Shown here in pieces: positions 1,552 through 24,660 of a stretch of 64,000 nt of DNA. The stretch is taken from positions 10,930 to 74,929 of the forward strand of contig JBHPFX010000002.1 of the NCBI GenBank assembly GCA_042570925.1. Direction: 5' to 3'. The stretch comes from Patescibacteria group bacterium (GTDB lineage Bacteria > Patescibacteriota > Patescibacteriia > UBA10025). The notes under the pieces were generated by a model. That model had not been told where the DNA came from. It worked only from the letters and a program-made list of their open reading frames with translations, and made no database searches. Made by a program: the position numbers and the translations under genes. Position 1 is the first letter of the stretch, and each line of letters begins with the position of its first letter.

Positions 1552-1659
1552 AATACTAAATGTTAGTAGATTAGTTTTTTTGTTGCGGAATGCAAATTTT
1601 TCAGCTTGACTTTTTTTGGAAAATAACATATTATAAAAGTGTCTTTAACAACCTAACAT

Positions 1660-1766
1660 AATTATCAAGAGTGCAGCGAGGGAACTAGCCCCACAACCTG
1701 CCGGCAACCCTAAGGCAATCCACTTAGAAGGTGCCAATTCTAGCCCGAAAAGGGAAAAGATAAAGG
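1660..1766 (+). promoter_or_regulatory. SAM-I (S-box) riboswitch aptamer
   Basis: Collinear match to S-box core elements: TTATCAAGAG...GAGGGA.CTAGCCC...CC.GGCAACC...AAGGTGCCAATTC.AGC...AGATAA. The P1 halves TTATC/GATAA are at 1662-1666 and 1759-1763. Confidence 0.85.
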
Positions 1767-4065: not shown

Positions 4066-5177
4066 TTTGTAGAGTAGAGTTTAGGTGAGATTGTACCAGC
4101 AAGAAATTCCTGATATCTGTTTTTTGGTTTAAGCTTAACTTTCCTTACATTAATACCTCCGTTGACCTTAATTGATGGCAGGTTTCCTATAGCAGTTTTT
4201 ACACTAGAAAAGTTATTTTCATCACGTATAATTGGCTCAGGAAAGCATTTTTCTGGGTCACCTTTAAGTACGCCAATCATAATCACTCTTTTTCTTTTTT
4301 GTGGAACCCCAAATTGAGCTGTATTCATCTTTTTACCTAGTAATCTATAGCCAAGATCAGAAAAATTATCTTTTATATTTTTATAAGTATTTCCATTATC
4401 ACTTGTTAATACTCCTTCAACATTTTCTATCAAAATTGCCCTGGGTTTAGTCTTTTTCACTATATAAACAAATTCTTTATAGAGAAAATTTCTTGGGTCA
4501 TCAATAAGACGCTTTCCAGCATGAGAAAATCCTTGGCATGGCGGTCCACCTATTACAATGTCAATTTTCTTTTTTCTTATAGTGTTTAATAATACTTTTT
4601 TTATTTGTTTCGTTGTAATATCTCCTTCCAGAAAAAGAGTTTTCTTGTGGTTACGTCTATAAGTTTCGCAGGCAGCTGGAAAATTATCATTGGCTGCTAT
4701 TATTTTATAACCAGCCCACTTGAACCCTAAGCTTAAGCCCCCGGAACCACAAAACAAGTCTAGTACATTATTAGTGTTTGTGACCTTTTTGATCTCCTTA
4801 GCTATATGATAAGCAAGCAATGGCGGGACAGCATTTCCGATTTGTTTAGGTAAGGATGTTTTTGATCCATAGAAAAAATAGTTATCTGGAAATGATTGTA
4901 ATCGTGCAGCTTCTCTAGCACTTATGACTCTATTATCTTTAGGATGAATATATGAGCCATTACCCGGTCTGTTAAAATAAGTGGTTATTGTGTAACTGGG
5001 TTTTGACCACATAAGTCTACCGTATAAAGTGGTTCTGCCGCCATTTTTTCTAATCTGCTCAAGTCTTTTGGAGGGAATACTTTTAGGAATATTTTTCCAG
5101 TTTCCTCCTTCTGGTATCGACTTAACCATTTTTAAGTCATTTGAACTGAGAGAGTACGTTACATGGTTATAAAGCAT
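4062..5177 (-). CDS. DNA (cytosine-5) methyltransferase, circularly permuted motif order
   Basis: N to C order: motif IX (RVISAREAARLQSFPDNY), X (QIGNAVPPLL), I (DLFCGSGGLSLGF), IV (GGPPCQGFSHAGKR), VI (ILIENVEG), VIII (QFGVPQKRKRVIMIG). Confidence 0.85.
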   Translation of the reverse strand: MLYNHVTYSLSSNDLKMVKSIPEGGNWKNIPKSIPSKRLEQIRKNGGRTTLYGRLMWSKPSYTITTYFNRPGNGSYIHPKDNRVISAREAARLQSFPDNYFFYGSKTSLPKQIGNAVPPLLAYHIAKEIKKVTNTNNVLDLFCGSGGLSLGFKWAGYKIIAANDNFPAACETYRRNHKKTLFLEGDITTKQIKKVLLNTIRKKKIDIVIGGPPCQGFSHAGKRLIDDPRNFLYKEFVYIVKKTKPRAILIENVEGVLTSDNGNTYKNIKDNFSDLGYRLLGKKMNTAQFGVPQKRKRVIMIGVLKGDPEKCFPEPIIRDENNFSSVKTAIGNLPSIKVNGGINVRKVKLKPKNRYQEFLAGTISPKLYSTN

Positions 5178-7692
5178 AGTTTTGTGTTTGTTTGATTATA
5201 TAGGTGATTAATTCATTTTGTTTATACTTACTAAAAACATGTTTTATCTCATTTTTTGAAATGTTATATATCTTAAATACTAAAATATTTAACTTACTTA
5301 ATCTTTTGATGTCCGTACTATTAATATTTTTAACTAATTGACAAATATATTCAATATTTTTTTTGTTTGTATGAGCAATCGGGAGATCGTTAAGTTCATA
5401 ATTACTAATATGATTATTAGAGTTAGTCAGATTAAACCTCCAATCAAGTAAGTATGAGTTTAAAAGTCCTAATAGATAATCTAACTTGATATCATCGCCA
5501 ATTTGTAGTTTATTCTCTTTTGAAATAAAATTACATGAGTTGCCTAAAATAAATCCTTTCGGGACTTTTACAAATTTTAATCTTTTATCTGAATTTATAT
5601 TTGAAATTTGTTGACAAACTAATCGCTCCTGTTTAATGTATTGACTTTTACTGCTTAATTTTGCAATAAATTCCTCCTTAATAAATTTGTTACTCTTACT
5701 AAAGTTGAACTCATTAATATTTATTCCCTTTAAAAGCGGATATGAGGTAGCTTCATTTGTTACATATTTTTTATCTAGAGTTAAATCAAGTTCACCGCGT
5801 AAATTATTTATTGATAGAAGTTGTTTAATTTTATTATGTTTGGAGATTTTATTTAATATTTTCCAGCCTATGCTATTTTCAGCAATTATTGGAATTGTTG
5901 ATGAAATATTTATTAAATCATTTATATTGATGTCAATTTTATCATTATGAATTTTATTAATACTATCAACATCATTTACAACTGAGAAATTATCTCCAGA
6001 ATAACTTTTATTAATTCCAAAAAAGCAAAAAGATTGAGTTATGTCAGGAAAGAACTTGTTTTTTTCTGGAATTATATATATATTACTAATTTTGTAGTTA
6101 TAAAAAATTCTCTTCCGAAGTTTTTCGCTTTGAAGGTCGTTTAATAATGTTATTGGAATTAGTAGTCCAATACGACTGTCATCATGTGAGTAGTTTTCAA
6201 TAATTTCTTCTACAAATAGCTTATAATAATTTAAAGTACCTTGGTTATATTTATAGAAATTATTATTTTTAATAAATTGAATAATATTTTTTATTTGTTC
6301 ATGATATCCATTATTTGTTTTTTTGCCATATTTATCACCGTTTGCTTTTAATAGTTTATATGGTGGATTTGTTATAATAATGTCAAATCCATCTTTTACA
6401 TTAAATATATTTCGTGGGTCAATTTTTATTATTTGCGATCCATTGATGTCGAATAATAAATCACCAATGTAATAATTATTATCAACAAGTTTGATTTGAT
6501 AATTATATTTCCTGTAAATATACTTTTTTAAAATGATTTTTAATAATTCTATTGCTTCATCGTCAATGTCGGCACAGTAAATGTTATTCAGCACTTTTTG
6601 GAGATCATGTTGAGAGCAATTCTTATTTATTTTAAACAAATAATCGATATATGCAATTATAAAGATACCGTTTCCTGCACAGGGCTCAAGAAACTTCTTT
6701 TCAAGCAGCTGTTTGAAAGTAAGACCCTGAAGAGATTCAATGATTATTTGCTCTGCAATTTGATAGTCGGTGTAGTAAATACCAAAATGTTTTCTTTCAT
6801 TTGTGTTATAAAGTTTCTTTTTTTCTTTTTCTTTTTGATGGGTTATACCAATAAGTTGAATTAGCTTAATTAAATCAACATGATTATTATTGCTAATTGA
6901 TTTATATATATAATCTTCAAGAGTATTGTTGATCTGGAGTGGCTTTGAAAAGAATGAAAATAAAATATCTAACAGTTGTTGTTTAGAAATACTCTTTAAA
7001 TTAATATTATTATAGATATCAATTAATAGAATATTTTTTGAAATACTAAACCTTTTATTAAGTAATTGATGTTGATTATTTGCTGTCTTATTGTCAAAAT
7101 TCCTAATAATCTTTACTACTAAACCTCTTATTTCAACTTCGTTTCTATAAATTGGCAAAAATGTAGGATTAGCTGGTTGAAGTCTAAATCTATTACCTTC
7201 TCGATACAATTTTTTGAGAGTTGCTTCATTATCATCAATAATTGCGACAACAGTTTGTCCATTATCTGCAATTTTCTGTTGACGGATAATTACAATATCT
7301 CCATCAAAAATTCCTTCTTTTATCATGCTATCGCCTTTAACTCTAAGCGCATAATGATTTCTTAATAAGTTAATTTCTTCTTTAGGAATTGATACGCTAG
7401 AATCGGGTATCTCTATAGCCTCAATTGGTTCTCCGGCAGCTATCGTCCCTTTGATTGCAATTTCTATTAAGTTACTGCCACTTTTGCTTAGCTCAACTCC
7501 TCTTGCTGAATGATTATTTCTAGTCAGAAATCCTTTCGACAATAAAGCTTCAATATGCTGATGTACAGTTGATGGCGCAGATAACTTAAAATGACGGCGT
7601 ATTTCCTCAAAGGTAGGGGAGTAGCCGTTTTCGCTTATGTATTTAGTAAGATAATCGAGTATTTGCTTTTGTCTCTTGGTGGGCGTAGCCAT
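5167..7692 (-). CDS. LexA repressor (wHTH + S24 peptidase) fused to a gamma-class N6-adenine DNA methyltransferase
   Basis: LexA part: wHTH, IAAGEPIEA cleavage context, GDSM Ser and TLKKL Lys. MTase part: LEPCAGNGIF (motif I), IIITNPPY (motif IV) and a TaqI-like C-terminal region (LLGLLNSYLLDWRF). One uninterrupted ORF. ATG 7692 (MATPTKRQ) preferred over 7776. Confidence 0.8.
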   Translation of the reverse strand: MATPTKRQKQILDYLTKYISENGYSPTFEEIRRHFKLSAPSTVHQHIEALLSKGFLTRNNHSARGVELSKSGSNLIEIAIKGTIAAGEPIEAIEIPDSSVSIPKEEINLLRNHYALRVKGDSMIKEGIFDGDIVIIRQQKIADNGQTVVAIIDDNEATLKKLYREGNRFRLQPANPTFLPIYRNEVEIRGLVVKIIRNFDNKTANNQHQLLNKRFSISKNILLIDIYNNINLKSISKQQLLDILFSFFSKPLQINNTLEDYIYKSISNNNHVDLIKLIQLIGITHQKEKEKKKLYNTNERKHFGIYYTDYQIAEQIIIESLQGLTFKQLLEKKFLEPCAGNGIFIIAYIDYLFKINKNCSQHDLQKVLNNIYCADIDDEAIELLKIILKKYIYRKYNYQIKLVDNNYYIGDLLFDINGSQIIKIDPRNIFNVKDGFDIIITNPPYKLLKANGDKYGKKTNNGYHEQIKNIIQFIKNNNFYKYNQGTLNYYKLFVEEIIENYSHDDSRIGLLIPITLLNDLQSEKLRKRIFYNYKISNIYIIPEKNKFFPDITQSFCFFGINKSYSGDNFSVVNDVDSINKIHNDKIDININDLINISSTIPIIAENSIGWKILNKISKHNKIKQLLSINNLRGELDLTLDKKYVTNEATSYPLLKGININEFNFSKSNKFIKEEFIAKLSSKSQYIKQERLVCQQISNINSDKRLKFVKVPKGFILGNSCNFISKENKLQIGDDIKLDYLLGLLNSYLLDWRFNLTNSNNHISNYELNDLPIAHTNKKNIEYICQLVKNINSTDIKRLSKLNILVFKIYNISKNEIKHVFSKYKQNELITYIIKQTQNYAL

Positions 7693-7800
7693 TATATATT
7701 GACAAACTTTAATGGTAATATTACACTTCCAGTATACCGAAAATCTACCGAAGTTGAAATAGGGAGTTATCCACAATATTTAAGATTAATAAATACTGCT

Positions 7801-8505
7801 GTGAGCAACGTTAATCGTACTTCCGGCGATCTAAAAAAAGAGCTAGTAGATCAGCTAGAACTATTAAAAAAATTAGTCGAACTATATGATAAGGGAACTA
7901 TTGTTGCCGCAAAGTCTATTGCGACTACTATTAGAGTACTTGTCCATGACACCACTAACTCACGTTCGCTAGCTGGGCAGTTAGACATGAAGAAGCTACC
8001 ATTTTTTGATACTATTGCTTTTCTTAGGGTTCCTTCAGGTCCAAATATAATCCGAGCCGGAAGTTTTGCAGGACTTTTATATCGTAGTAATAAGGGTCCT
8101 ACCCCAATGCTAGATAGAATTCCAAGAGGTGAAGCTAAATATGTTCCATTTAGTCACTTCTGGAATAGAGTCGTTTTTACAGATAATTATAGCGTCAACT
8201 TTACGCGAAGCGATGTTATACTTGATCTAGCTAATAAGGACGGTGGTGCCCATGTAGACCCAAAGTTAGATGAAAAGTATATCAACATAGCTCGAAAAAA
8301 TTCGATGGGGTGGTTTAGATCTTCCGATGGGAAAAGCTGGTTTGCGGAAGAAGGTGTTATCTATGCTACCGTACGTCAGATTGGCCATGAAATACTACGA
8401 TCATTTGTGCTAGACTATCCAAAAAAGCAGCCGGCGGTGGAACAGGGAATATTAATGAGCGGTCAGGGTATATATATTGAGGTAATAAAGTCCAGGAAGA
8501 AATAA
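7801..8505 (+). CDS. hypothetical protein, start uncertain
   Basis: The ORF is open from 7591, but that start overlaps the divergent LexA-MTase gene. In-frame GTG 7801 or TTG 7699 are alternatives. No family recognised. Confidence 0.4.
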   Translation: MSNVNRTSGDLKKELVDQLELLKKLVELYDKGTIVAAKSIATTIRVLVHDTTNSRSLAGQLDMKKLPFFDTIAFLRVPSGPNIIRAGSFAGLLYRSNKGPTPMLDRIPRGEAKYVPFSHFWNRVVFTDNYSVNFTRSDVILDLANKDGGAHVDPKLDEKYINIARKNSMGWFRSSDGKSWFAEEGVIYATVRQIGHEILRSFVLDYPKKQPAVEQGILMSGQGIYIEVIKSRKK

Positions 8506-8638
8506 CTCTTAGTTGCTTTTCTACCAGTAGCTTTCTCATGGGCTCATTTTCTTATCCCCCAAAAATTACCGCAATGTTTCACAACCTCAATCCCTCCAAA
8601 GTCTAAGAAAATTTACCCTAGTTTATAAATATTAAAAA

Positions 8639-8664
8639 CTCTTCTTTTCAGAAGAGGTTTTTTT
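8639..8664 (+). terminator. intrinsic terminator
   Basis: CTCTTCT (8639-8645) pairs with AGAAGAG (8650-8656), followed by a T-run at 8658-8664. Confidence 0.65.
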
Positions 8665-8709
8665 GAATTATAGCGTTTACAGGAAGAAGGATTCTGCACG
8701 AATGCCAAC

Positions 8710-8820
8710 TTTTTGCTATACTCATCCTAAGGCAGACGTTAGTACTATCCTGACGGCTACTTTAAGAATCAGTTTTTTATCTATTTCCTAACGTAATTCA
8801 TATTTCACATACCCAAAGAT
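8710..8820 (+). repeat. decayed copy of the ABC-F promoter, leader and first codons (partner 11895-12005)
   Basis: About 111 bp aligns at roughly 90 percent identity with 11895-12005, including the TGCTATACT -10 box. The start codon reads ATA here versus ATG in the functional copy. Confidence 0.8.
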
Positions 8821-8873
8821 CTGGAGTGCACTGGTATCTGGTGGAAACAGAAGGTTAGTAAAAAGTATACAGA

Positions 8874-9110
8874 ATGACAAAACACATTTCGCTCGACAAT
8901 AAGGAAGTCACGTATACATTGCGCAAGAGTAGACGGGCCCGTAGAATGCGCCTTGCGGTATTTGTCGATGGTTCAGTTGTTGTTACGACGCCGTATAATC
9001 TTCGTGAGAATATTGACAGCTTTGTTGACAACTTAGATTTATTAATGTATACTAAAGTTGTCAACTACCCATATGGATATTCGAAAGCGTATTCTCAAAG
9101 AAATACATAA
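8874..9110 (+). pseudogene. truncated 5' fragment of a DUF45/YgjP-type metallohydrolase gene
   Basis: The first 142 nt duplicate the start of the intact gene at 10154. The last 73 bp (8943-9015 vs 10223-10295) differ at one position, after which the sequences diverge. Confidence 0.7.
9024..9065 (+). promoter_or_regulatory. sigma70-like promoter inside an 11-bp inverted repeat
   Basis: TTGACA (9025-9030), 17-nt spacer, TATACT (9048-9053). GTTGACAACTT (9024-9034) and AAGTTGTCAAC (9055-9065) are perfect inverted repeats. Confidence 0.55.
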
Positions 9111-10107
9111 TACCGGCGAAGTCCGGTCTGCAGATATCGTCCATGAAACCGGCTTTTCTCGCGAATATGTCGGTCGTTTTTTGCGCAAGCTCCAGCAGGA
9201 AGGAAAAATCATGTTAATCGGTAGGGCAAATCAGGCGCGGTATATTTCCACTTCGCCACAGGCGGTGGAAAATGCTAAGCGCAATATCCTGCAAAAACAA
9301 CTGATCCTAAAGAACAAAAACCACGATCTGAGCGAAGATCGTGTACTGGAGAGACTCAAGAGAGAAACAGGTATATGGGTGAAACTCGCCACCCAAGCAT
9401 CCGCTATACTTGACTACGGGTTCACCGAGATGCTCAATAATGCCATTGATCATTCAGGATCGCGATTGATCAGTATACGCCTCGATCGTGAGAAAGATAT
9501 GGTCTTTTTCGAAGTGATTGATGAGGGCGTCGGGATATTCCGAAATATTATGAGGACACGAAAGCTACGTAATGAAGAAGAAGCGATTGAGGAGCTGATG
9601 AAAGGAAAGCAAACAACGATGCCGAAGGCTCATTCCGGAGAAGGAATCTTTTTCACTTCAAAAGCTGCTGACATTTTGATTATCCAGAGTGGAAGCACGA
9701 AGCTAGAGTTCAATAATGTTGTAGGTGATATCTTTGTAAAAAAGAGACAGAACCCCCTCAAAGGTACGCGCGTCTCATTTATGCTCCGACTTCCTACGCG
9801 AAAGTCATTGAACCAGATATTTCGTCGGTACAGTGATAAAACGATGTCATTTTCAAAAACTCAGGTACGTGTCAAAATGTTCATGGCTGGGAGTGAGTAC
9901 ATCTCAAGGTCGCAGGGTAGGAGATTGACAGCTGGTCTTGATAAGTTTAAGACGATTTCCCTTGATTTTAAGGGAGTGACATCAGTCGGTCAGGCTTTTG
10001 TTGACGAGGTATTTCGGGTATTTCAGATGCGATATCCAAAAATTACTATAAAACCGATTAACATGAATAAGGCAGTAACATTCATGATTGAACGAGCGAA
10101 GCGGTAA
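9073..10107 (+). CDS. wHTH + GHKL-type ATPase + STAS-like (DUF4325) domain protein
   Basis: N-terminal wHTH (SADIVHETGFSREYVGRFLRKLQQEGKI). N-box MLNNAIDHSG, G1 box IDEGVGIF, G2-like GEGIFFTSK. C-terminal DFKGVTSVGQAFVDEVFRVF. Confidence 0.6.
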   Translation: MDIRKRILKEIHNTGEVRSADIVHETGFSREYVGRFLRKLQQEGKIMLIGRANQARYISTSPQAVENAKRNILQKQLILKNKNHDLSEDRVLERLKRETGIWVKLATQASAILDYGFTEMLNNAIDHSGSRLISIRLDREKDMVFFEVIDEGVGIFRNIMRTRKLRNEEEAIEELMKGKQTTMPKAHSGEGIFFTSKAADILIIQSGSTKLEFNNVVGDIFVKKRQNPLKGTRVSFMLRLPTRKSLNQIFRRYSDKTMSFSKTQVRVKMFMAGSEYISRSQGRRLTAGLDKFKTISLDFKGVTSVGQAFVDEVFRVFQMRYPKITIKPINMNKAVTFMIERAKR

Positions 10108-10153
10108 TGGACAGGCTGGTGCACGTAGGTGCTATCAGTAAAGATTTCAAAGC

Positions 10154-10723
10154 ATGACAAGAAACATATCCTTCGATAATAAGAATATTTCGTATACATT
10201 ACGCAAGAGTAAACGGGTCCGCAGAATGCGCCTTGCGGTATTTGTCGACGGTTCAGTTGTTGTTACGACGCCGTATAATCTTCGTGAGAATATTGCGGAG
10301 AAATTTATCCGGGAAAAAAGTAGGTGGCTTTTTACAAAATTGGATTATTTTAGACAATTCAAACTCAAACCCGTTGCTCGACATAGTCAGGGGAGCTACT
10401 TAAAAAGTAGAGATGATTCATATAGATTTGTAATAGAGCGTGTTCAACATTTCAATAATGAATATACATATCCTTTTAAACGAGTTAGTATACGAAATCA
10501 AAAAACACGGTGGGGAAGCTGCTCTAAAAAAGGCAATCTTAGCTTTAACTATAAAATCACCTCGTTACCACCACGATTGGCTGATTACATTATCGTCCAT
10601 GAACTATGTCATTTGAAGGAGTTTAATCATTCCAAGAAGTTTTGGAGCTTGGTTGGACAAACCTTTCCGGATTACAAAGAAATAAAGAAAACGCTAAAAC
10701 AGTATAGCTTGAGTTTAGGATAG
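10154..10723 (+). CDS. DUF45/YgjP-family (M48-like) metal-dependent hydrolase
   Basis: WGSCSKKGNLSFNYK and the HExxH motif in IIVHELCHLKEFNHSKKFW. Confidence 0.75.
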   Translation: MTRNISFDNKNISYTLRKSKRVRRMRLAVFVDGSVVVTTPYNLRENIAEKFIREKSRWLFTKLDYFRQFKLKPVARHSQGSYLKSRDDSYRFVIERVQHFNNEYTYPFKRVSIRNQKTRWGSCSKKGNLSFNYKITSLPPRLADYIIVHELCHLKEFNHSKKFWSLVGQTFPDYKEIKKTLKQYSLSLG

Positions 10724-11841: not shown

Positions 11842-11894
11842 GACGCAGCTTGGTTGCTCAGGGTGGTGGAGAAGGGTTCGGCACAAAAGCCGAG

Positions 11895-12005
11895 TTTTTG
11901 CTATACTTATCCCAAGGCAGACGTTAGTACTATGCTAACGGCTACTTTAAGACTCGGTTTTTTATCTATTTCCTAAAGAAACTCATATTTCACATGCCCA
12001 AAGAT
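11895..12005 (+). repeat. functional ABC-F promoter, leader and start (partner of 8710-8820)
   Basis: TGCTATACT extended -10 at about 11899-11907, an ~85-nt leader with hairpin CGTTAG/CTAACG, and ATG 11994. Confidence 0.75.
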
Positions 12006-13457
12006 AATGTAGTTCTCAGTTTCTCTGATGTTACCTTCGCCTATGGCGGGGGAAAGCCATTGCTTGAGGAGGTAAGCTTCTCTGTCCGTACGGGGAGTCG
12101 CATCACCCTGATGGGTCAGAATGGAGCGGGGAAAAGTTCAATTTTCAAGCTGATCACGGACGAGATTAAACCGACTGATGGCCGGGTATCCCGTACTCCA
12201 CCGAGTGCCAGTGTCGCCATAGCCCGTCAAGTCATGCCTAAGGAGGCGCTTGATTTAAATGTTCGCGACTACTTTGAAACCGCGTTTACTGATGTACAGC
12301 ACAAACTGGATAAAATGATTCAGGAAGTATTTGATATCGTTCATCTCTCACTGCCTTTGGATCGCATCATCCGCCAACTGTCCGGCGGACAGCAGGCCCG
12401 ATTGCTTTTAGCACATGCTTTGATTCAGAAGCCGGATATTCTGTTGCTCGACGAGCCGACAAACAATCTCGACCAGTACGGTATCGACCATCTAACCGGT
12501 TTTCTTGTGATGTACGAAAAAACATGTCTCGTCATTTCCCATGATGCTGATTTTTTAAACGCTTTTTCGGATGGCGTGCTCTATCTCGATGTCCACACTA
12601 AGAAGGTAGAACAATATATGGGAAATTACACGGATGTCGTGGAGGAGATTACGAAGCGGATTGAACGCGAGAATTTACAGAACGCGCGGATGCAGAGGCA
12701 GATCAGAGAAAAGCGTGCACAGGCTGAGGTGTTTGCCCATAAGGGCGGCAAGCTTCGTGGCGTAGCAAAACGTATGCGTGAATCTGCGGAGGAAGCTGAA
12801 GAAAATATAGTGAGTGTGCGCAGAGAAGACAAACCAATTCGGAAATTTACTATTCCCAGTCAGGACTTCGGTCCGCATTTTGGCGGGACAGTTGTCCAGC
12901 TTCACGCGGCTACGGTTATACGCGACCACAAAGCTAAGGAGCGGAAGCTCGACGTTACTGTCCGTAAAGGTGATCATGTGGTTATAGCAGGACCGAATGG
13001 TATCGGCAAAAGCACCCTGCTGGCAAAAATTGCCGGAGGGTCATCCGATTTTGCTACTGTGGCACCGGAGGCTTTAGTCGGGTACTATCAACAAGATTTC
13101 GGCAACCTCGACAGCGACCAACTTGCTTTCGATGCGTTGAAGGCGGTTATGTTTGAGGATGATGAGCACCTGTTGAGATCAACAGCGGCCGGATTCTTAC
13201 TTGATGGCAAATTGCTCACCCAGCCTATCGGCGCACTGTCTGAAGGGCAAAAAGGTCTGCTGTCATTGTGCCGGTTTGTCCTGCAGAAACCAGGCTTGCT
13301 CGTCCTCGACGAACCGACAAACCATATCAACTTTCGCCATCTGCCGATCTTAGCCAAGGCTCTCGATGAGTATAGTGGTGCCTTGATCATGGTGTCCCAT
13401 ATCCCGGAGTTTGTCAGTCAGATACGGATTGATACTGTGGTTGACCTGGATCGTTGA
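11994..13457 (+). CDS. ABC-F family ATPase (two ABC domains, no TM domain)
   Basis: Walker A GQNGAGKSS and GPNGIGKST. Signatures LSGGQQARL and LSEGQKGLL. Walker B LLLDEPTNNLD and LVLDEPTNHIN. Charged inter-domain linker. Confidence 0.85.
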   Translation: MPKDNVVLSFSDVTFAYGGGKPLLEEVSFSVRTGSRITLMGQNGAGKSSIFKLITDEIKPTDGRVSRTPPSASVAIARQVMPKEALDLNVRDYFETAFTDVQHKLDKMIQEVFDIVHLSLPLDRIIRQLSGGQQARLLLAHALIQKPDILLLDEPTNNLDQYGIDHLTGFLVMYEKTCLVISHDADFLNAFSDGVLYLDVHTKKVEQYMGNYTDVVEEITKRIERENLQNARMQRQIREKRAQAEVFAHKGGKLRGVAKRMRESAEEAEENIVSVRREDKPIRKFTIPSQDFGPHFGGTVVQLHAATVIRDHKAKERKLDVTVRKGDHVVIAGPNGIGKSTLLAKIAGGSSDFATVAPEALVGYYQQDFGNLDSDQLAFDALKAVMFEDDEHLLRSTAAGFLLDGKLLTQPIGALSEGQKGLLSLCRFVLQKPGLLVLDEPTNHINFRHLPILAKALDEYSGALIMVSHIPEFVSQIRIDTVVDLDR

Positions 13458-13508
13458 TCGAGAAAAGGGTCGGGCACAAGAACCGGGCTTTTTTGGTATA
13501 CTCACTTT

Positions 13509-14084
13509 ATGAATAAACCAACTAAGATAATCCTCATCCATGGAAATGGTGGAGGCACAGGCACCGACTACTGGTTTCCATATGTGAAAGCCCAGTTTGA
13601 ATCACTCGACATACCTGTGATCGCGGAGACATTTCCAGATAGCGTAGAAGCGAAGGCGGCTGTGTGGCTGCCGCATTTAGAAAAGCTTGGTGCGGATGAG
13701 CATACTATTCTCATCGGCCATTCATCCGGGGCGGTGGCGACTTTGCGGTATGCGGAAAATCACAAACTATACGGCTCGGTGCTTGTGGGTGTGAATCATA
13801 CTGACCTTGGACTGGAAAGCGAAAAGATCAGCGGGTACTATGACCATCCATGGAAGTGGGACGTTATTAATAAAAATCAGAAGTGGATTATTCTTTTTGC
13901 CTCAAAGGACGATCCGTATATCCCCATCGACGAACCTCGCTATATTCACCGACAGCTTAAATGCGAATACAATGAGTATACTGACAAGGGACACTTTGGT
14001 ACTGTTGATTCAAAGAGAGGATATGACAGGCCTATGACGGAGTTTCCGGAGCTGGTCGCATCGGTGAAAGGGAAATTGTCTTAA
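13509..14084 (+). CDS. alpha/beta serine hydrolase (YdeN/RBBP9-like)
   Basis: ILIHGNGGG, nucleophile elbow GHSSG, and a C-terminal D...H. Confidence 0.6.
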   Translation: MNKPTKIILIHGNGGGTGTDYWFPYVKAQFESLDIPVIAETFPDSVEAKAAVWLPHLEKLGADEHTILIGHSSGAVATLRYAENHKLYGSVLVGVNHTDLGLESEKISGYYDHPWKWDVINKNQKWIILFASKDDPYIPIDEPRYIHRQLKCEYNEYTDKGHFGTVDSKRGYDRPMTEFPELVASVKGKLS

Positions 14085-14100
14085 ACAAAAAAAACTTATA

Positions 14101-14195
14101 CAAAGATCATGCGTGTTCCCATCCGAAAACCAGGAAAGAGAGTTAGGCCGAGTGGCCAGCTTTTTGGTATACTCACTATATCAATAAACCCCAAA
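14101..14195 (+). repeat. mosaic scar: copy of the greA 5' end joined to a copy of the hydrolase promoter/start
   Basis: 14101-14138 matches 14727-14764 (greA start, 33/38). 14158-14190 matches 13487-13520 (TGGTATACT promoter plus start; ATG reads ATC here). Confidence 0.7.
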
Positions 14196-14315
14196 AAACA
14201 ACCCCTTAAATTTCGGGACATAAAATAAATATAAAATAACCCTCATGACTAACCTCCACCTCGCCGAAAAAGAAGCCACTTAGTTAAGAATTGATAAACT
14301 AATATACTCTATGCT

Positions 14316-14672
14316 ATGGAAACCAATGGTATGAGCGAAAACAACCAGAAGCCCACGGTTGGGAAAGACCCGCTACATTTCATAAAAGGCGTGTTGTGGG
14401 TGTTGCTCTTGATCAGTTTTGCCATGATTGCCATTTCCTTTACCTCCGTTGGCCTTAAGATTCCCTACATATATACAGGGTATGCTCTTCTCCCGGGTGT
14501 TGCGATCATTCTAGGAGTTCTTGAGCTATTGAGTCACGGCGCCCACATACGGTTGGAACAAAAGAAACCAACTAGCTCGAAGATTGCCTCTAAAGTCGCT
14601 TTTTGGTTTATTATTGTTTGCTTCGCCGTACTCGCATTTTCAATTCTTGGTACGTCGGTGGGCTGGTGGTAG
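14316..14672 (+). CDS. small membrane protein
   Basis: Three or four predicted hydrophobic helices. TATACT lies 7 nt upstream of the ATG. Confidence 0.5.
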   Translation: METNGMSENNQKPTVGKDPLHFIKGVLWVLLLISFAMIAISFTSVGLKIPYIYTGYALLPGVAIILGVLELLSHGAHIRLEQKKPTSSKIASKVAFWFIIVCFAVLAFSILGTSVGWW

Positions 14673-14734
14673 AGGGTAAAGGCTAGAGTTTATTTATGCC
14701 ACACTAAAATCACTTTGCCCAAAATTCCAAGATC

Positions 14735-15232
14735 ATGCGTATTCCTATCCGAAAACCCGGAAAATATACTCATTCTAAAACGGACCTGCATCTCACTCAG
14801 GCTAAGCTTGATGAGATGAAAAAGGAGTTAGAGAGGTTAGTAAGTATTCTCCGTCCCAAATCGATGAAGGAAGTCAGCCGGCTTGCCGAGATGGGGGACT
14901 TTTCTGAGAATGCGGCGTATCAGATCTCTAAAGGCCGCTTGCGAGGGATCAACGCGCGAATCTTGGATCTGGAAGAACGTATAGGAAAGGTGGTAATTAT
15001 TGAACCAAAAGACAATGCCCACATTCAAATTGGACACCGGGTGACTGTCGAAGCAAATAGAAAACAGCTCACGTATCTGATACTGGGATCTACGGAGTCT
15101 GATCCCGGTCAGAGTGTTATTTCACATACGTCTCCACTTGGTGCCGCATTGATCGGGAAGGCGGTCGGGGATACTGTGACGGTAAAACTGAAGGAAAAAG
15201 ACGTAAAGTATGAAATTATAAAGGTAGAATAA
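14735..15232 (+). CDS. greA: transcription elongation factor GreA
   Basis: N-terminal coiled-coil region with AEMGDFSENAAYQ, and a C-terminal FKBP-like domain. Confidence 0.85.
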   Translation: MRIPIRKPGKYTHSKTDLHLTQAKLDEMKKELERLVSILRPKSMKEVSRLAEMGDFSENAAYQISKGRLRGINARILDLEERIGKVVIIEPKDNAHIQIGHRVTVEANRKQLTYLILGSTESDPGQSVISHTSPLGAALIGKAVGDTVTVKLKEKDVKYEIIKVE

Positions 15233-15239
15233 GAAGGAC

Positions 15240-17033
15240 TTACTTCTTCCTCGCAGCCCGGACTCGATCGGATTCTTTTAACATCTGTTTACGAAGTCTG
15301 GTGCTCTTTGGAGTAATCTCCAGATATTCATCATCATTCATTATTTCCATCCCACTTTCGATCGTTATCTCCAATGGCGGAGTGAGAGAAATGGCGTCAT
15401 CAGAACCGGATGCGCGCATATTTGTTAAACGTTTTCCTTTGATAGGGTTCACTTCCATATCATCTCCTTTTGATACATTTCCGATAATCATACCTTCGTA
15501 TACTTCCACATTTGGTCCGATGTACAGCTGTCCGCGAGTTTGCAGGTTATATAGTGAAAACCCCAGAGCTTTTCCTTGTGCCATAGAAATCATAGAGCCG
15601 GTACTTCGTTTTTCAATTTTTCCCGCGTGAGGCTTGAAATCAATAACACGTGAAGCCATAATTCCATGCCCTCGCGTATCGATGATAAACTCACCTCTGT
15701 ATCCAAGAAGTCCTCTAGTGGGAATTTCAAAGAGTAAACGGGTCTGGGTGTCGTGCTGGTGCATATTTGTCATCTTCCCGCCGCGGTTGGATAGTATTTC
15801 AATCACTGCTCCGGAGAATTCATTTGGAATATCAATCGTTACTTCTTCGAATGGTTCATGTAATTTTCCGCTAATTTCTTTTGTAATCACTTGCGGTTGT
15901 GAAATTTGCATTTCGTATCCTTCACGCCTCATGTTTTCCAGTAAAATAGCGATGTGCATCTCACCTCGTCCATGGATTCGATAACGATCCTTTTCGGTAA
16001 AATCAATGGCCAGACCGACATTTACTTCCAGTTCTTTTTTTAACCGGTCATGAAGCTGGCTGTTTGTCACGTACTTTCCTTCTTGGCCCGCAAAAGGCGA
16101 GTTATTTACAAGTAAGTCGAGAGAGATAGTCGGCTCGTCAATTGAAATTGCGGGCAGGGCTTCTTGGTCTTCAGACTCACAAATTGTCTCACCGATATCT
16201 ATGTCCGCTATTCCTGATGCCATCATTATGTCGCCGGCTTTGGCTGTCTGGACTTCTTGTCTTTCAAAACCATGAAAAGTGAAGAGCTTAGTGATCGTTG
16301 CTTTTCTGTTTTCACCTTTAGAGTTTTTCACAATGATTTCCTGTGCTTTGGAAATCGTACCCTCATATATTCGTCCAATTGCAAGGCGTCCTAGATAATC
16401 GTCATATCCTAAGTTAAATGGCTGCATTCGAAGTTTGAGTGATGTGTCATGGGGAGAAGGAGGTACATGTTCTAAGATAGTATCTAAGAGCGGGGACATG
16501 TCTGTTGATTCGTCCGTCATTTTTTTCTTAGCCATACCTTGAGTGCCAATTGCATATACGGTGATGAAATCCAGTTGCTCATCGTGTGCTCCGAGATCCA
16601 TAAATAGTTCTAATACTTTATCATGAGCTTTATCAGGATCTGCGGCCGGCTTGTCAATTTTATTTAGAACAACAATAGGTTTTAATCCAATCTCTAAGGA
16701 TTTTTTTAACACAAAACGAGTCTGGGGCATCGGGCCTTCCTGCGCGTCAACAATTAAAAGAACAGAATCAATTGAGCGTAATACGCGTTCTACTTCAGAG
16801 CTAAAATCAGCGTGACCGGGAGTGTCCACGATGTTTATTTTTGTGTCCTTGTATATGAGAGAAGCGTTCTTCGCATATATAGTAATGCCGCGTTCCTGCT
16901 CGAGAGTATTGGAGTCCATAGTTTCACCCTCTTTTACCATGCCCGTTTGCTTCATCATCGCATCAACCAAAGTAGTCTTCCCATGATCAACGTGGGCAAT
17001 GATTGCGATATTTCTTGTTTCTTTGTACTCCAT
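15240..17033 (-). CDS. typA: translational GTPase TypA/BipA
   Basis: [18 protein letters not shown] (G1), DTPGHADF (G3), NKIDK (G4), EF-G-like domains. ATG 17033 ([12 protein letters not shown]) preferred. Confidence 0.9.
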
Positions 17034-17252
17034 GAATTGGGTAAAAAATAAAATGGCCGCTTTGGCCAACCTTGTTATGAAGATAGACTATACCAGTACA
17101 TATAACTTGTGTCAATAATACGAGGCACTAGTTGGTGTTATTACAGTGAGACCCTGAATAGAACCTGATATCCATCAGGACTAAAGGTTCAGGGTGGTTA
17201 GATGGGTTCAGGGTGGTTGAATAAGTTAAAAATGGTAAGAGGGATGTGGCGA

Positions 17253-17308
17253 TTGACAGGATGGTTAACATATGTTAACCTATAGAGGTAAATAACTTAT
17301 TGGTTAAC
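17253..17308 (+). promoter_or_regulatory. promoter/operator of the Doc toxin-antitoxin operon
   Basis: TTGACA at 17253-17258. Perfect 18-bp palindrome GGTTAACATATGTTAACC at 17263-17280, plus an extra half-site GGTTAAC at 17302-17308. Confidence 0.6.
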
Positions 17309-17318
17309 ATAGCTAAAC

Positions 17319-17576
17319 ATGCCGGAAAAAGAATACATTTCCACTATTGAAGCTGCAACGATACTTGGTATCAGCCGTGTTGCGGTATTTAAGAAAATTA
17401 AAAAAGGCGATTTAAAAGCAAAGAAGGTTGGTCGGAATTATGTTATTGACCGTGAAGCTGTGCTCGCACACCAAGGTGTCAAACTTGACGAGCGGGCCAA
17501 GGTAGAGATTGGCAGGGCGGTAGACAAAACGGTGAAAGAATACGGAGAAACATTAAAAATGCTCGGTGATGCCTAG
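17319..17576 (+). CDS. excisionase/MerR-type HTH antitoxin
   Basis: ISTIEAATILGISRVAVFKKIKKGDLKAKKVGRNYVI. Overlaps the toxin start. Confidence 0.7.
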   Translation: MPEKEYISTIEAATILGISRVAVFKKIKKGDLKAKKVGRNYVIDREAVLAHQGVKLDERAKVEIGRAVDKTVKEYGETLKMLGDA

Positions 17577-17997
17577 GAAAAGTACGCAACTTTCCGTTGA
17601 AGAAGTGAAACTTATCGCGCATAAACTTGCGAGACTGCATTTGACGTTCAATGAACCGATACCGGATTTCTCGACTCGGTTTCCGGGAAAGCTGGAAAGT
17701 TGTCTTGCTACGCCGTTTCAGAAGTATTCGAAGAAATCACTCTACCAGGGCCTCACGAAGAAAGCGGCTGTGATGTTTTATCTTATGGTCAAAAACCATC
17801 CTTTTCAAAACGGCAATAAACGGATTGCAATGACCAGCGTGTTTGTTTTACTGCATAAAAACGACAAGTGGCTGAAAGTTGATACAAAAGAGCTTTACAA
17901 TTTCGCCTTGTGGGTTGCGGAGAGCAATTCAAAATTGAAAGATGAAGTGATTGCGGCAACTGAGAAATTCTTGAATTCATACATTGTTGATTTGTAA
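17569..17997 (+). CDS. doc: Doc (death-on-curing) family toxin
   Basis: Doc-type Fic motif HPFQNGNKRIAM. 8-nt overlap with the antitoxin gene. Confidence 0.8.
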   Translation: MPRKSTQLSVEEVKLIAHKLARLHLTFNEPIPDFSTRFPGKLESCLATPFQKYSKKSLYQGLTKKAAVMFYLMVKNHPFQNGNKRIAMTSVFVLLHKNDKWLKVDTKELYNFALWVAESNSKLKDEVIAATEKFLNSYIVDL

Positions 17998-24079: not shown

Positions 24080-24210
24080 ATAAGTTTTTTGTATGATGCA
24101 AATGGGGCAAATCACTTTTGCCGTGTTTCTTCGGGATCCTTCCTCTTCGCTTCATTCCCCTAGGAACTGATGTCAGAGTCAGGATGGTTTGGTAAATTTA
24201 AGCAAAAAAT

Positions 24211-24507
24211 ATGAATGACAAGCAGTATTTTGTCTATATTTTAACGAACAAACGGCATACAGTTTTGTATGTCGGCTTTACGAGTGATTTGATCGGTAGA
24301 ATTGAGAATCATAAGTGTAAAATTGTAAAGGGATTCACTAATAAATATAATATTAATAAACTGGTGTATTTCGAGGTTATTGAAGATTATAATACCGCTC
24401 TAGCGAGGGAAAAGCAGATTAAAAATTGGCATCGTGAGTGGAAATGGGGTCTTGTTAAGAAGAAAAATCCTGATCTAAAAGATCTGACAAAAATAATAAA
24501 TTCATAA
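24211..24507 (+). CDS. GIY-YIG nuclease superfamily protein
   Basis: YFVYILTN...LYVGFTSDL..R...H and REKQIKNWHREWK. Confidence 0.8.
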   Translation: MNDKQYFVYILTNKRHTVLYVGFTSDLIGRIENHKCKIVKGFTNKYNINKLVYFEVIEDYNTALAREKQIKNWHREWKWGLVKKKNPDLKDLTKIINS

Positions 24508-24544
24508 AAAATAATACCATGCTGAACTTGATTCAGCATCCCGA

Positions 24545-24660
24545 AGTAAATCAACGGGACTCCGGATCAAGCCCGGAGTGGTGTTATATGAGGAATCCTG
24601 GGGTTATATGCTAATTGCAGTAAATCAACGGGACCCTTCGCTACGCTCAGGGTGGTGTGG
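24545..24660. repeat. two tandem units of AGTAAATCAACGGGA + hairpin + TGGTGT
   Basis: Unit 1 starts at 24545 with hairpin CTCCGG/CCGGAG. Unit 2 starts at 24619 with hairpin ACCCT/AGGGT. GTTATATG is also duplicated (24584 and 24603). Confidence 0.65.

Follow-up and report, generated by a model that had tools for sequence, protein, structure and literature searches.

Orphan gene fragments in the T6SS effector–immunity arrays of V. cholerae and in Rhs loci have been proposed to arise by displacement of the homology-facilitated illegitimate recombination (HFIR) type (PMC5361080, where the earlier HFIR work of de Vries & Wackernagel 2002 and Prudhomme et al. 2002 is cited). In these T6SS/Rhs-CDI loci the constant part lies 5′ and the orphans are downstream 3′ ends. 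Integration at a gene start is known for SXT, which enters prfC at its 5′ end (PMC2791158). Natural competence has been shown in Patescibacteria (Saccharibacteria) (PMC10633639).

Here we analyse a 64,000-nt stretch (hereafter the window; contig JBHPFX010000002.1, positions 10,930–74,929) of a metagenome-assembled Patescibacteria (CPR) genome, in which stubs of the starts of two neighbouring genes lie upstream of an intact greA. We tentatively read these stubs as the scar of illegitimate, one-sided-homology recombination (HFIR-type, additive integration), giving this reading slightly less than an even chance.

Two gene-start stubs between hyd and greA

The locus is bounded by hyd (13509–14084, + strand), coding for a 191-residue serine hydrolase of the RBBP9/YdeN type (Pfam PF06821 and NCBI name), and an intact greA (14735–15232, +), coding for a 165-residue transcription elongation factor (PF03449 and PF01272). 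Both products share 90% amino-acid identity with their counterparts in L081, the only close relative in the collections. Between the two genes the order is hyd–G′–hairpin–P′–X–G, with all features on the forward strand. G′ (14098–14137) is a displaced greA stub running from −11 to +29, identical over its best ungapped extent at 35 of 40 positions to G, the repeat copy in intact greA (14724–14763). P′ (14160–14190) copies the hyd promoter and 11 nt from the start of hyd, its ATG changed to ATC; its core (14161–14190) agrees at 28 of 30 positions with the resident P (13490–13519, +), which comprises the promoter TTTTTGGTATACT and the first 11 nt of the hyd coding sequence.

The original prediction had paired 14101–14138 with 14727–14764, and re-alignment returned exactly the 33 of 38 identities claimed. 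Its second pairing (14158–14190 with 13487–13520) also held, with one indel in a T-run and two mismatches, one of these being the ATG>ATC change. Against the greA start the spacer 14085–14200 scores 26, and against the hyd promoter 24, far above 1,000 dinucleotide shuffles (means 7.2 and 6.9, maxima 13 and 12, respectively). P′ opens with the generic 13-nt promoter motif of this genome, TTTTTGNTATACT, which occurs 13 times in the window where 0.9 would be expected. The following 17 nt are gene-specific and match at 15 positions, which makes P′ a genuine copy of the promoter and start of hyd. These alignments confirm G′ and P′ as real paralogous fragments.

The −10 element of P ends 6 nt upstream of the ATG at 13509, so the hyd mRNA is probably leaderless. 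P′ has probably kept its promoter activity and would now drive transcription into X and greA. G′ retains an intact ATG (14109), which opens a 39-codon junk ORF.

The two stubs had been described as directly joined; in fact 22 nt lie between them (14138–14159). Homology to greA ends at 14137, and the 22 nt beyond this left junction (14137/14138) are unique in the window, with a possible GAAA-type microhomology at the junction itself. Together with its flanks, the linker folds into a terminator-like hairpin (GAGAGUU-A-GGCC GAGU GGCC-AGCUUUU; 14138–14165, +) that runs into the T-tract forming the upstream part of P′. This hairpin is not homologous to the one upstream of P, and an Rfam search of 8–16 kb gave no match. 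The right junction is seamless: greA is intact and in frame and runs collinear with its L081 counterpart (87.5% nucleotide identity), and a sliding identity plot has no clear breakpoint within the gene.

The cargo, X (14191–14723, +; 533 bp), is single copy in the window and among 86 fetched loci, with no similarity to hyd, L081 or any of those loci. It holds memX (14316–14672, +), an orphan ORF of 118 aa with three hydrophobic segments, located where a 118-residue membrane gene had been predicted between the stubs and the real greA. NCBI annotates memX as hypothetical protein ACFL0L_00760, starting at the ATG at 14331, and its coding score is intermediate. A word-indexed search of 5.8 billion proteins and a full phmmer run over 1.84 billion cluster representatives each returned memX itself only. 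There was no Pfam or PADLOC match, no similarity to the DUF2178 membrane protein of L081 and no record in exact-sequence look-ups of hyd and memX. Lacking a relative anywhere searched, X is foreign to the hyd–greA locus.

A short patch copied from a nearby site, with a short flanking duplication, is what a single replication-based template-switching event (MMBIR/FoSTeS) would leave. Replication would have stalled about 30 nt into greA, copied the roughly 30-nt patch from the promoter 670 nt upstream and further sequence from other templates, and resumed 40 nt back, thereby duplicating the greA start. Greatest similarity for such a switch lies at greA +34 to +41 (TATACTCA), whose sequence is that of the −10 region of P, a possible microhomology. 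A junction at this point is ruled out, the homology of P′ continuing some 10 nt further left. Moreover, neither the window nor relatives offer a template for the 533 nt of X, and the whole 12% divergence between G′ and G would have to postdate the event. We consider template switching decidedly improbable.

Reciprocal empty sites in a close relative

L081 has the order ABC-F, hyd, a different 1.4-kb insert (HTH-DUF2178-NUDIX) and an uninterrupted greA. The flanks of its insert, which share the 7-nt repeat AAAAAAC, give window positions 14085–14137 when joined (L081 8557–8564 plus 9979–10029). The hyd stop, the ancestral 24-nt spacer (14085–14108, +; left plus right L081 flank) and G′ are therefore contiguous as in the joined flanks, placing G′ at the original greA start and implying that the hyd–greA gap was filled independently in each lineage. 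L081 greA, uninterrupted at +30, is the empty site for the window insertion; the window hyd–G′ junction is the empty site of the different insertion in L081. These reciprocal empty sites mark the hyd|greA junction as a real hot spot. Consistent with the original prediction, which had turned on whether the membrane-gene segment is absent in relatives, 14191–14723 is missing from L081 and from every database searched; in L081 the absence extends over the whole of 14138–14723.

Wider comparisons added little. An ABC-F query of GTDB species genomes gave 80 loci (best 74% amino-acid identity) in which synteny around ABC-F is not kept, making them of no use for an empty-site test. Among the contexts of greA and hyd homologues (P0003, P0004, P0006 and P0123), only L081 is syntenic. 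The greA start is strongly conserved at the nucleotide level, recurring in genomes with 46–51% GreA identity, which weakens inference from G; a JGI metagenome scan with the greA-start pattern found two distant genomes only.

Divergence from L081 at four-fold sites is 0.22–0.30 for ABC-F, hyd and greA and 0.49 for typA, and an HTH-Fic module lies on opposite sides of typA in the two genomes. By these measures the region reads as a mosaic against L081. A foreign, more diverged origin of the present greA is unsupported: its synonymous divergence (0.24) equals that of ABC-F and hyd, giving no sign of a more distant lineage.

As in genomic islands, the insert is bounded by direct repeats (G′ and G), one of which completes the target gene. 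This geometry raises the prospect that a small circular element or a decayed island integrated here by a Campbell-type or site-specific route, with G′ and G as attL and attR and an attachment region mimicking the greA 5′ end, as in SXT/R391 at prfC. The imperfect repeats and the restoration of greA by the element-side copy would follow, insertion into a gene 5′ end has the SXT precedent (PMC2791158), and a second, different insert occupies the same junction in L081 between its 7-nt repeats. Mobility functions are missing, however. Among the ORFs of 100 aa or longer in 1–20 kb, all scanned against Pfam, none has a transposase domain or codes for a tyrosine or serine recombinase or integrase; intI is absent from 1–20 kb, and no tRNA gene lies within about 15–20 kb of the insert. 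Neither end of X carries an attC-type imperfect palindrome, and the insert termini (14138/14191 and 14723) show no inverted repeats beyond chance 10-mers. The flanking repeat (40 nt, 88% identical) is not a short identical target-site duplication. With an insert of just 586 bp that has no mobility gene, a cargo that is single copy and unmatched elsewhere, and two insertions at different positions relative to greA (−20 in L081, +30 in the window) with different repeats, site-specific integration appears improbable.

Further stubs nearby

Two more stubs lie upstream. A′ (8685–8820, +) is a copy of the ABC-F promoter, its leader of about 95 nt and its start (ATG>ATA), the resident version A being at 11870–12005 (+). 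D′ (8821–9015, +), the stub of a YgjP-like gene from about −50 to +142, directly abuts A′. D′ is a mosaic with respect to D: within 8857–9015, the first 54 nt contain 17 mismatches and the remaining 105 nt contain 5 (p = 1e-5). Such a pattern would be hard to obtain by uniform decay in situ and is typical of recombination between diverged copies.

L081 has A′ as well, in front of the same DUF4325 gene. The orthologous copies differ at 6 of 101 sites, compared with 22% at ABC-F four-fold sites. This presence in both genomes with low divergence indicates that A′ is old and either constrained or gene-converted. The same A′…A architecture in an independent assembly from another data set also speaks against an assembly artefact, in which the contig would chain two strain variants of one locus. 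The metagenomic source of the genome makes this conceivable, but no k-mer is common to both contexts at 14137/14138 for a graph assembler to follow, and the repeats are diverged rather than identical. We regard an artefact as very improbable.

The hyd–greA locus had been presented as a second example of one scar type that, together with the case at 8.7–12 kb, suggested a recurrent mechanism of cassette gain at gene 5′ ends in this genome. The likeness is partial. The geometry of 5′ stub, cargo and intact gene does recur in A′/A and D′/D at 8.7–12 kb, but A′ is no dead scar of equal age, given its presence and small divergence in L081, and P′ falls outside the stub–cargo–gene order because an intact hyd lies upstream of it. 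Recurrence is local: all four stubs sit in a 6-kb stretch (8.6–14.8 kb) bordering a defence island. The other 50 kb of the window has no such stub, and across 1.3 Mb of loci from other Patescibacteria such pairs are sparse. The four stub ends have no common motif, and a dedicated mechanism is not indicated by any recombinase, cassette structure or motif common to the junctions.

A dedicated and hitherto unrecognised route in this Patescibacteria clade, by which resident genes would gain small cassettes just within their 5′ ends, seems to us highly doubtful. The units concerned would each consist of a terminator, a promoter, a short 5′ stub, cargo and the start of the next gene, always with a promoter and a replacement start. 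Such a route would account for four stubs in 6 kb, the double filling of the hyd|greA gap and the lasting conservation of A′. In a weaker variant, memX would be a newborn gene expressed from the captured promoter P′.

Origin of the stubs

One-sided-homology recombination would explain the stubs as follows. The ancestral order would have been ABC-F, P–hyd, the 24-nt spacer and greA, with P driving hyd and greA as one transcript. The incoming DNA, perhaps acquired by transformation, would have come from a related chromosome or from a copy of this interval in another arrangement, and would have carried the terminator hairpin, P′ with its 11 nt of hyd, X and the greA 5′ region. Its right side would have paired with resident greA, giving the seamless in-frame junction, and its left end would have joined without homology about 30 nt inside resident greA. 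The displaced resident start would then remain as G′ while the incoming copy heads the functional gene, an alternative version of the interval thus being stacked behind resident hyd. We infer that the product was viable because the insert supplies its own greA start and promoter: the new hairpin would end hyd transcription, P′ would restart it and the ATG>ATC change would silence a leaderless nine-codon remnant.

Substitution patterns are consistent with one-sided recombination between diverged alleles. By codon position, G′ and G differ at one, zero and three sites (three synonymous changes and one V>I), and D′ and D at five, three and eight, with all replacements conservative. Pooled, 11 of 20 differences fall at third positions (p = 0.04), a bias that would suit alleles diverging under selection, as far as 4–20 substitutions can suggest. 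Where G′ and G differ, G′ has three states in common with L081 greA, an allele affinity drawn from few substitutions; identity to L081 greA is 35 of 37 positions for G′ and 39 of 43 for G.

Other observations bear on the donor. The hyd start in P′ is of the window type (AATAAACC), not the L081 type (GGTAGACC), which a recent copy from within the genome would explain no less well than an imported allele. One-sided recombination also requires an earlier event that left P′ and 11 nt of hyd before X. A donor or intermediate genome (terminator–P′–X–greA without hyd) was not found in collections that hold one close relative.

The main rival, which we judge unlikely but of real weight, is an in-situ tandem duplication of the segment from P through hyd to the greA 5′ end, giving P–hyd–G′/P′–hyd′–greA. 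The second hyd body (+12 of hyd to −12 of greA) would later have been replaced by foreign X, with the stubs decaying in place. In bacteria no spontaneous rearrangement is commoner than tandem duplication, which counts for this account. G′ followed by P′ is exactly a duplication junction, unit end joined to unit start, and the P–P′ and G′–G spacings are similar (671 and 626 nt). The agreement of P′ with the P allele of the window rather than that of L081 would be expected, and a G′–G divergence of 12%, lower than the window–L081 four-fold divergence, allows the event to postdate the split.

Yet no full second unit exists, the repeats being the 30-nt P′ and the 40-nt G only. X is not a decayed second hyd copy (local score 21 versus 19.9 ± 2.5 for shuffles; no tblastx match). 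A second illegitimate replacement with tidy borders is also required. The 22 nt before P′ are unlike the sequence before P and form a different, well-formed hairpin, calling for an extra filler insertion. Functional G has as many derived changes as dead G′, and the neighbouring D′/D mosaic is left unexplained.

Discussion

The kind of scar described here is ordinary and the locus reveals no new system; the hyd–greA site marks a spot of fast gene-content turnover. If our preferred reading of one-sided recombination is correct, the locus offers a clean, base-resolved example of accessory DNA entering a streamlined CPR genome without mobile-element machinery. Insertion before a housekeeping gene would be tolerated because the incoming DNA supplies the gene start and a promoter. 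The short stretch separating hyd from greA has been hit independently in two sister lineages, and stubs that bear promoters are able to persist, as A′ has. For annotation, such stubs account for spurious small ORFs and duplicated promoters, and they are usable as markers of past recombination in metagenome-assembled genomes.

Each of the known systems shares part of this architecture. Like SXT-type 5′-end integrations, the insert lies in a gene 5′ end, flanked by direct repeats, and a replacement start keeps the gene intact; unlike them, it has no integrase, conserved att core or mobility genes, measures 0.6 kb, and has a counterpart at another position in the neighbouring lineage. Tandem-duplication junctions likewise place a unit end (greA +30) before a unit start (the hyd promoter), but here the second copy has unrelated DNA for its body, and the junction is taken up by a terminator hairpin of non-homologous sequence. 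Compared with the HFIR products of T6SS/Rhs-CDI loci, the polarity is mirrored, the anchor here being the downstream gene and the stubs upstream 5′ ends with promoters, and the cargo is a tiny orphan ORF instead of a toxin–immunity pair. Otherwise the two are alike on our reading: one junction is homologous and seamless and the other would be illegitimate, cargo is gained, the displaced resident piece stays as an adjoining stub, and repeated events build arrays of stubs.

Gene context and reality of the displaced gene starts

The locus lies in a portion of a Patescibacteria (CPR) metagenome-assembled genome whose ABC-F ATPase has its relatives in Andersenbacteria- and Doudnabacteria-like MAGs. 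The gene order is ABC-F (11994–13457, +), hyd, an RBBP9/YdeN-type serine hydrolase (13509–14084, +), greA (14735–15232, +) and typA (15240–17069, −), with a 650-nt gap between hyd and greA (14085–14734) that holds memX, a 118-aa ORF (14316–14672). Upstream, at 2.8–12 kb of the window, is a defence-type island encoding an Alw26I-like restriction enzyme, a C5 methylase, a LexA-fused Eco57I-type methylase, a DUF4325/HATPase protein, a YgjP-like peptidase and a Fic protein. An 869-aa ORF (5167–7776, −) fuses LexA DNA-binding and S24 peptidase domains to the Eco57I-type methyltransferase and sits in a 25% GC stretch; a SAM riboswitch (RF00162, 57 bits) is found at 1659–1766 (+), upstream of an ORF at 1842–2252. 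The promoter of the DUF4325 gene (TTGACA-17-TATACT, 9016–9057) is enclosed by a perfect 11-nt inverted repeat (GTTGACAACTT…AAGTTGTCAAC), kept in both the window and its close relative L081 (~4110–4160), which looks like an operator.

The copy of the greA start is as originally predicted, 14101–14138 matching 14727–14764 at 33 of 38 positions; the best extent pairs the displaced stub G′ (14098–14137) with G, the copy belonging to intact greA (14724–14763), at 35/40. The claimed copy of the hyd promoter and start, with ATG changed to ATC, is also present (P′, 14161–14190, against the resident P, 13490–13519; 28/30, with one T-run indel just upstream). Ungapped scores of 26 and 24 compare with maxima of 13 and 12 from 1000 dinucleotide shuffles of the spacer (14085–14200). 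P′ consists partly of the genome's generic promoter motif, TTTTTGNTATACT; over the 17 nt beyond the motif, 15 match the hyd promoter and start, so P′ is a genuine copy. The two stubs had been described as directly joined, but 14138–14159 between them is unique sequence. This segment is part of a terminator-like hairpin (−15.7 kcal/mol, z = −2.2) that also takes in the T-tract of P′ and the A/G-rich end of G′ and is unrelated to the hairpin upstream of P. The first 23 nt of greA (ATGCGTNTTCCNATNCGAAAACC, MR[VI]PIRKP) are conserved at the nucleotide level (window 14735–14757; L085 2794–2816; L086 1146–1168), even where GreA identity is only 46–51% (L085 and L086).

The ancestral hyd–greA junction

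Species-level genomes are too distant for comparison (ABC-F at most 74% identical, synteny lost), and the protein collection yielded only one close relative, Logan contig L081 (amino-acid identity 90% for GreA, 90% for hyd and 96% for ABC-F). The more distant L082, L083 and L084 carry greA or hyd with other neighbours, and a JGI metagenome scan with a greA-start pattern returned distant genomes only. In L081, ABC-F (6465–7928) and hyd (7981–8556) are followed by a small XRE-type HTH-like ORF (8704–8902, read by eye from the sequence), DUF2178 (8923–9567), NUDIX (9583–9990) and greA (10001–10498). The 533-bp cargo of the window, X (14191–14723), is absent from L081, in line with its proposed status as an insert, and the same gap there holds a different 1.4-kb cargo.

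Window 11878–14092 aligns with L081 6349–8564 at 91%, and window 14089–14137 (spacer plus G′) aligns with L081 9979–10029, just before and into L081 greA. In a three-way alignment, the hyd stop, 24 nt and G′ of the window equal the left and right flanks of L081 joined together, the borders of the L081 insertion sharing a common 7-nt repeat, AAAAAAC. The ancestor thus had hyd followed by greA 24 nt on, and the flank match places G′ exactly at the former beginning of greA. Each genome is the empty site for the other's insertion, so the same few dozen bases were filled independently in the window and L081 lineages. The L081 insertion (8565–9978) comprises the HTH-like ORF, DUF2178 and NUDIX, with the AAAAAAC direct repeat supplying the last codons of the NUDIX gene; HTH–DUF2178 modules occur at other sites too, in L082 and L084.

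Routes to the insertion

There is no indication of a dedicated cassette system. We found no transposase, integrase or recombinase domains in ORFs of at least 100 aa (1–20 kb), no tRNA genes (1–30 kb), no terminal inverted repeats at the insert ends and no Rfam families (8–16 kb), and the four stub ends (GAT/CTGG, TTG/ACAG, AAA/GAGA and ACC/CCAA, read from the sequence) have no common motif. Target-site duplication is ruled out because the flanking repeat is 40 nt long and 88% identical.

The locus reads as a resident 5′ stub, new DNA and an intact gene whose start was brought by the new DNA. Tentatively, we favour an event resembling homology-facilitated illegitimate recombination (HFIR), in which incoming DNA would pair homologously on one side, inside greA, while its other end would be attached by illegitimate joining ~30 nt into the resident greA. 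Several features lean this way. G′ and G differ by three synonymous changes and one V>I; replacements between the YgjP-like gene D and its stub D′ are all conservative, and third codon positions hold 11/20 substitutions when both pairs are pooled (p=0.04). G′ has the L081 state at three G′/G difference sites, and identity to L081 is 35/37 for G′ and 39/43 for G. Mismatches between D′ and D form a mosaic pattern, 17 falling within 54 nt and 5 in the 105 nt that follow (p=1e-5). The region is also mosaic relative to L081, with four-fold-site divergence of 0.22–0.30 in ABC-F, hyd and greA and 0.49 in typA, and an HTH–Fic module that lies on one side of typA in the window and on the other in L081. 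Counting against HFIR, no donor arrangement was found, P′ has the window-type hyd start and not that of L081, greA synonymous-site divergence is no greater than that of its neighbours, and the substitution counts behind the favourable arguments are small.

The main rival, which we consider unlikely, is in situ tandem duplication of a segment from P through hyd to the greA 5′ end, with later replacement of the second hyd body. Its junction would likewise read G′ then P′, but it must add filler that by chance makes a good terminator hairpin and needs a tidy replacement by DNA without any trace of hyd; neither at the DNA level nor in translation does X resemble hyd, L081 or any fetched locus. The remaining probability is shared among template switching, misassembly and the integration of a decayed island or small circle.

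Expression and the cargo ORF

Ancestral greA would have been co-transcribed from P, because it lay 24 nt behind hyd with no terminator between them. In the present order a hairpin follows G′, and P′ comes immediately afterwards. The ATC of P′ would block translation of the 9-codon remnant, and transcription from P′ would continue through X into greA; such read-through would account both for the tolerance of an insertion before a housekeeping gene and for the nearly intact state of P′. In the hyd promoter 6 nt separate the end of the −10 element from the ATG, and several further TTTTTGNTATACT copies lie 6–9 nt from a start codon, spacings at which the mRNAs are probably leaderless. The window has 13 copies of TTTTTGNTATACT, which combines a T-tract with an extended −10, where 0.9 would be expected (positions include 13490, 14161, 20437, 21259, 23315, 26654 and 50951). 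Many of them merge with the T-run of a terminator hairpin just upstream and stand 6–9 nt from ATG, a placement that suggests widespread leaderless mRNAs.

The product of memX (NCBI MFC1687094.1, locus tag ACFL0L_00760, on a 111-kb contig) has no homologue but itself in a 5.8-billion-protein index, was likewise the only match when 1.84 billion cluster representatives were scanned in full with phmmer, and has no Pfam or PADLOC match. It contains three hydrophobic segments. Its codon-usage score is 0.10 (real genes of the window, 0.23 ± 0.06; out-of-frame shadow ORFs, −0.02 ± 0.10), its own frame being clearly the best of three. On this sequence evidence, memX may encode a real, lineage-specific small membrane protein.

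A local pattern of gene-start repeats

The original prediction suggested a recurrent mechanism in this genome. When the window and 84 fetched Patescibacteria loci (1.38 Mb together) were each searched for internal repeats, the window gave six short direct-repeat pairs, of which four join an intergenic copy to the 5′ end of a plus-strand gene: G′/G, P/P′, D′/D and A′/A, the last being the ABC-F promoter, leader and start, with A′ abutting D′. All four lie within 8.6–14.8 kb and such pairs are sparse elsewhere, which makes the pattern local to the defence-island border, within the scope of the window, rather than genome-wide. The four pairs bear out a shared scar type in part, but the stubs are not alike: A′ is old, and P′ departs from the stub–cargo–gene order because intact hyd lies upstream of it. 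It is highly improbable that this clade adds cassettes systematically at 5′ ends, or that memX was born on a captured promoter.

L081 too has A′ upstream of its orthologous DUF4325 gene, and the orthologous copies differ at 6/101 sites, against 22% at ABC-F four-fold sites (p=1e-5). Its low divergence and presence in L081 show that A′ is old, and either functional (promoter plus ~95-nt leader) or kept similar by gene conversion. The doubled promoter and leader (window 8685–8820 and 11870–12005; L081 3763–3867 and 6366–6470), whose extra copy precedes the DUF4325/HATPase gene in both genomes, comprises four copies 88–94% alike, a conservation well above that of four-fold sites. The leader hairpin has one pair-preserving change (U·G to U-A), and Rfam has no match to the leader, which may be a regulatory element put to use again for a second gene. 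In another locus, L039, the ABC-F upstream region is repeated three times.

Beyond greA, the HTH17–Fic module (window 17253–17996; L081 10722–11465) is 93% identical, typA only 82%. Repeats of 40–110 nt (…CAGTAAATCAACGGGACCCTTCG…CTCAGGGTGGT…) flank small GIY-YIG genes (window 24100–24660; L081 1509–1613, 10505–10618, 11852–11965 and 20217–20254), and in L081 they bracket an HTH17–Fic–GIY-YIG block inserted between greA and typA. The family has no Rfam match; a small element, either mobile or structured, is a possible identity.

Patescibacteria have been shown to be capable of natural competence (PMC10633639), and HFIR is the proposed origin of displaced orphan fragments at Rhs loci and in the T6SS arrays of V. 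cholerae (PMC5361080). The recombination scar described here is real and well resolved, and it sits at a local gene-turnover hot spot in a CPR genome. It is another instance of an already known kind of event.
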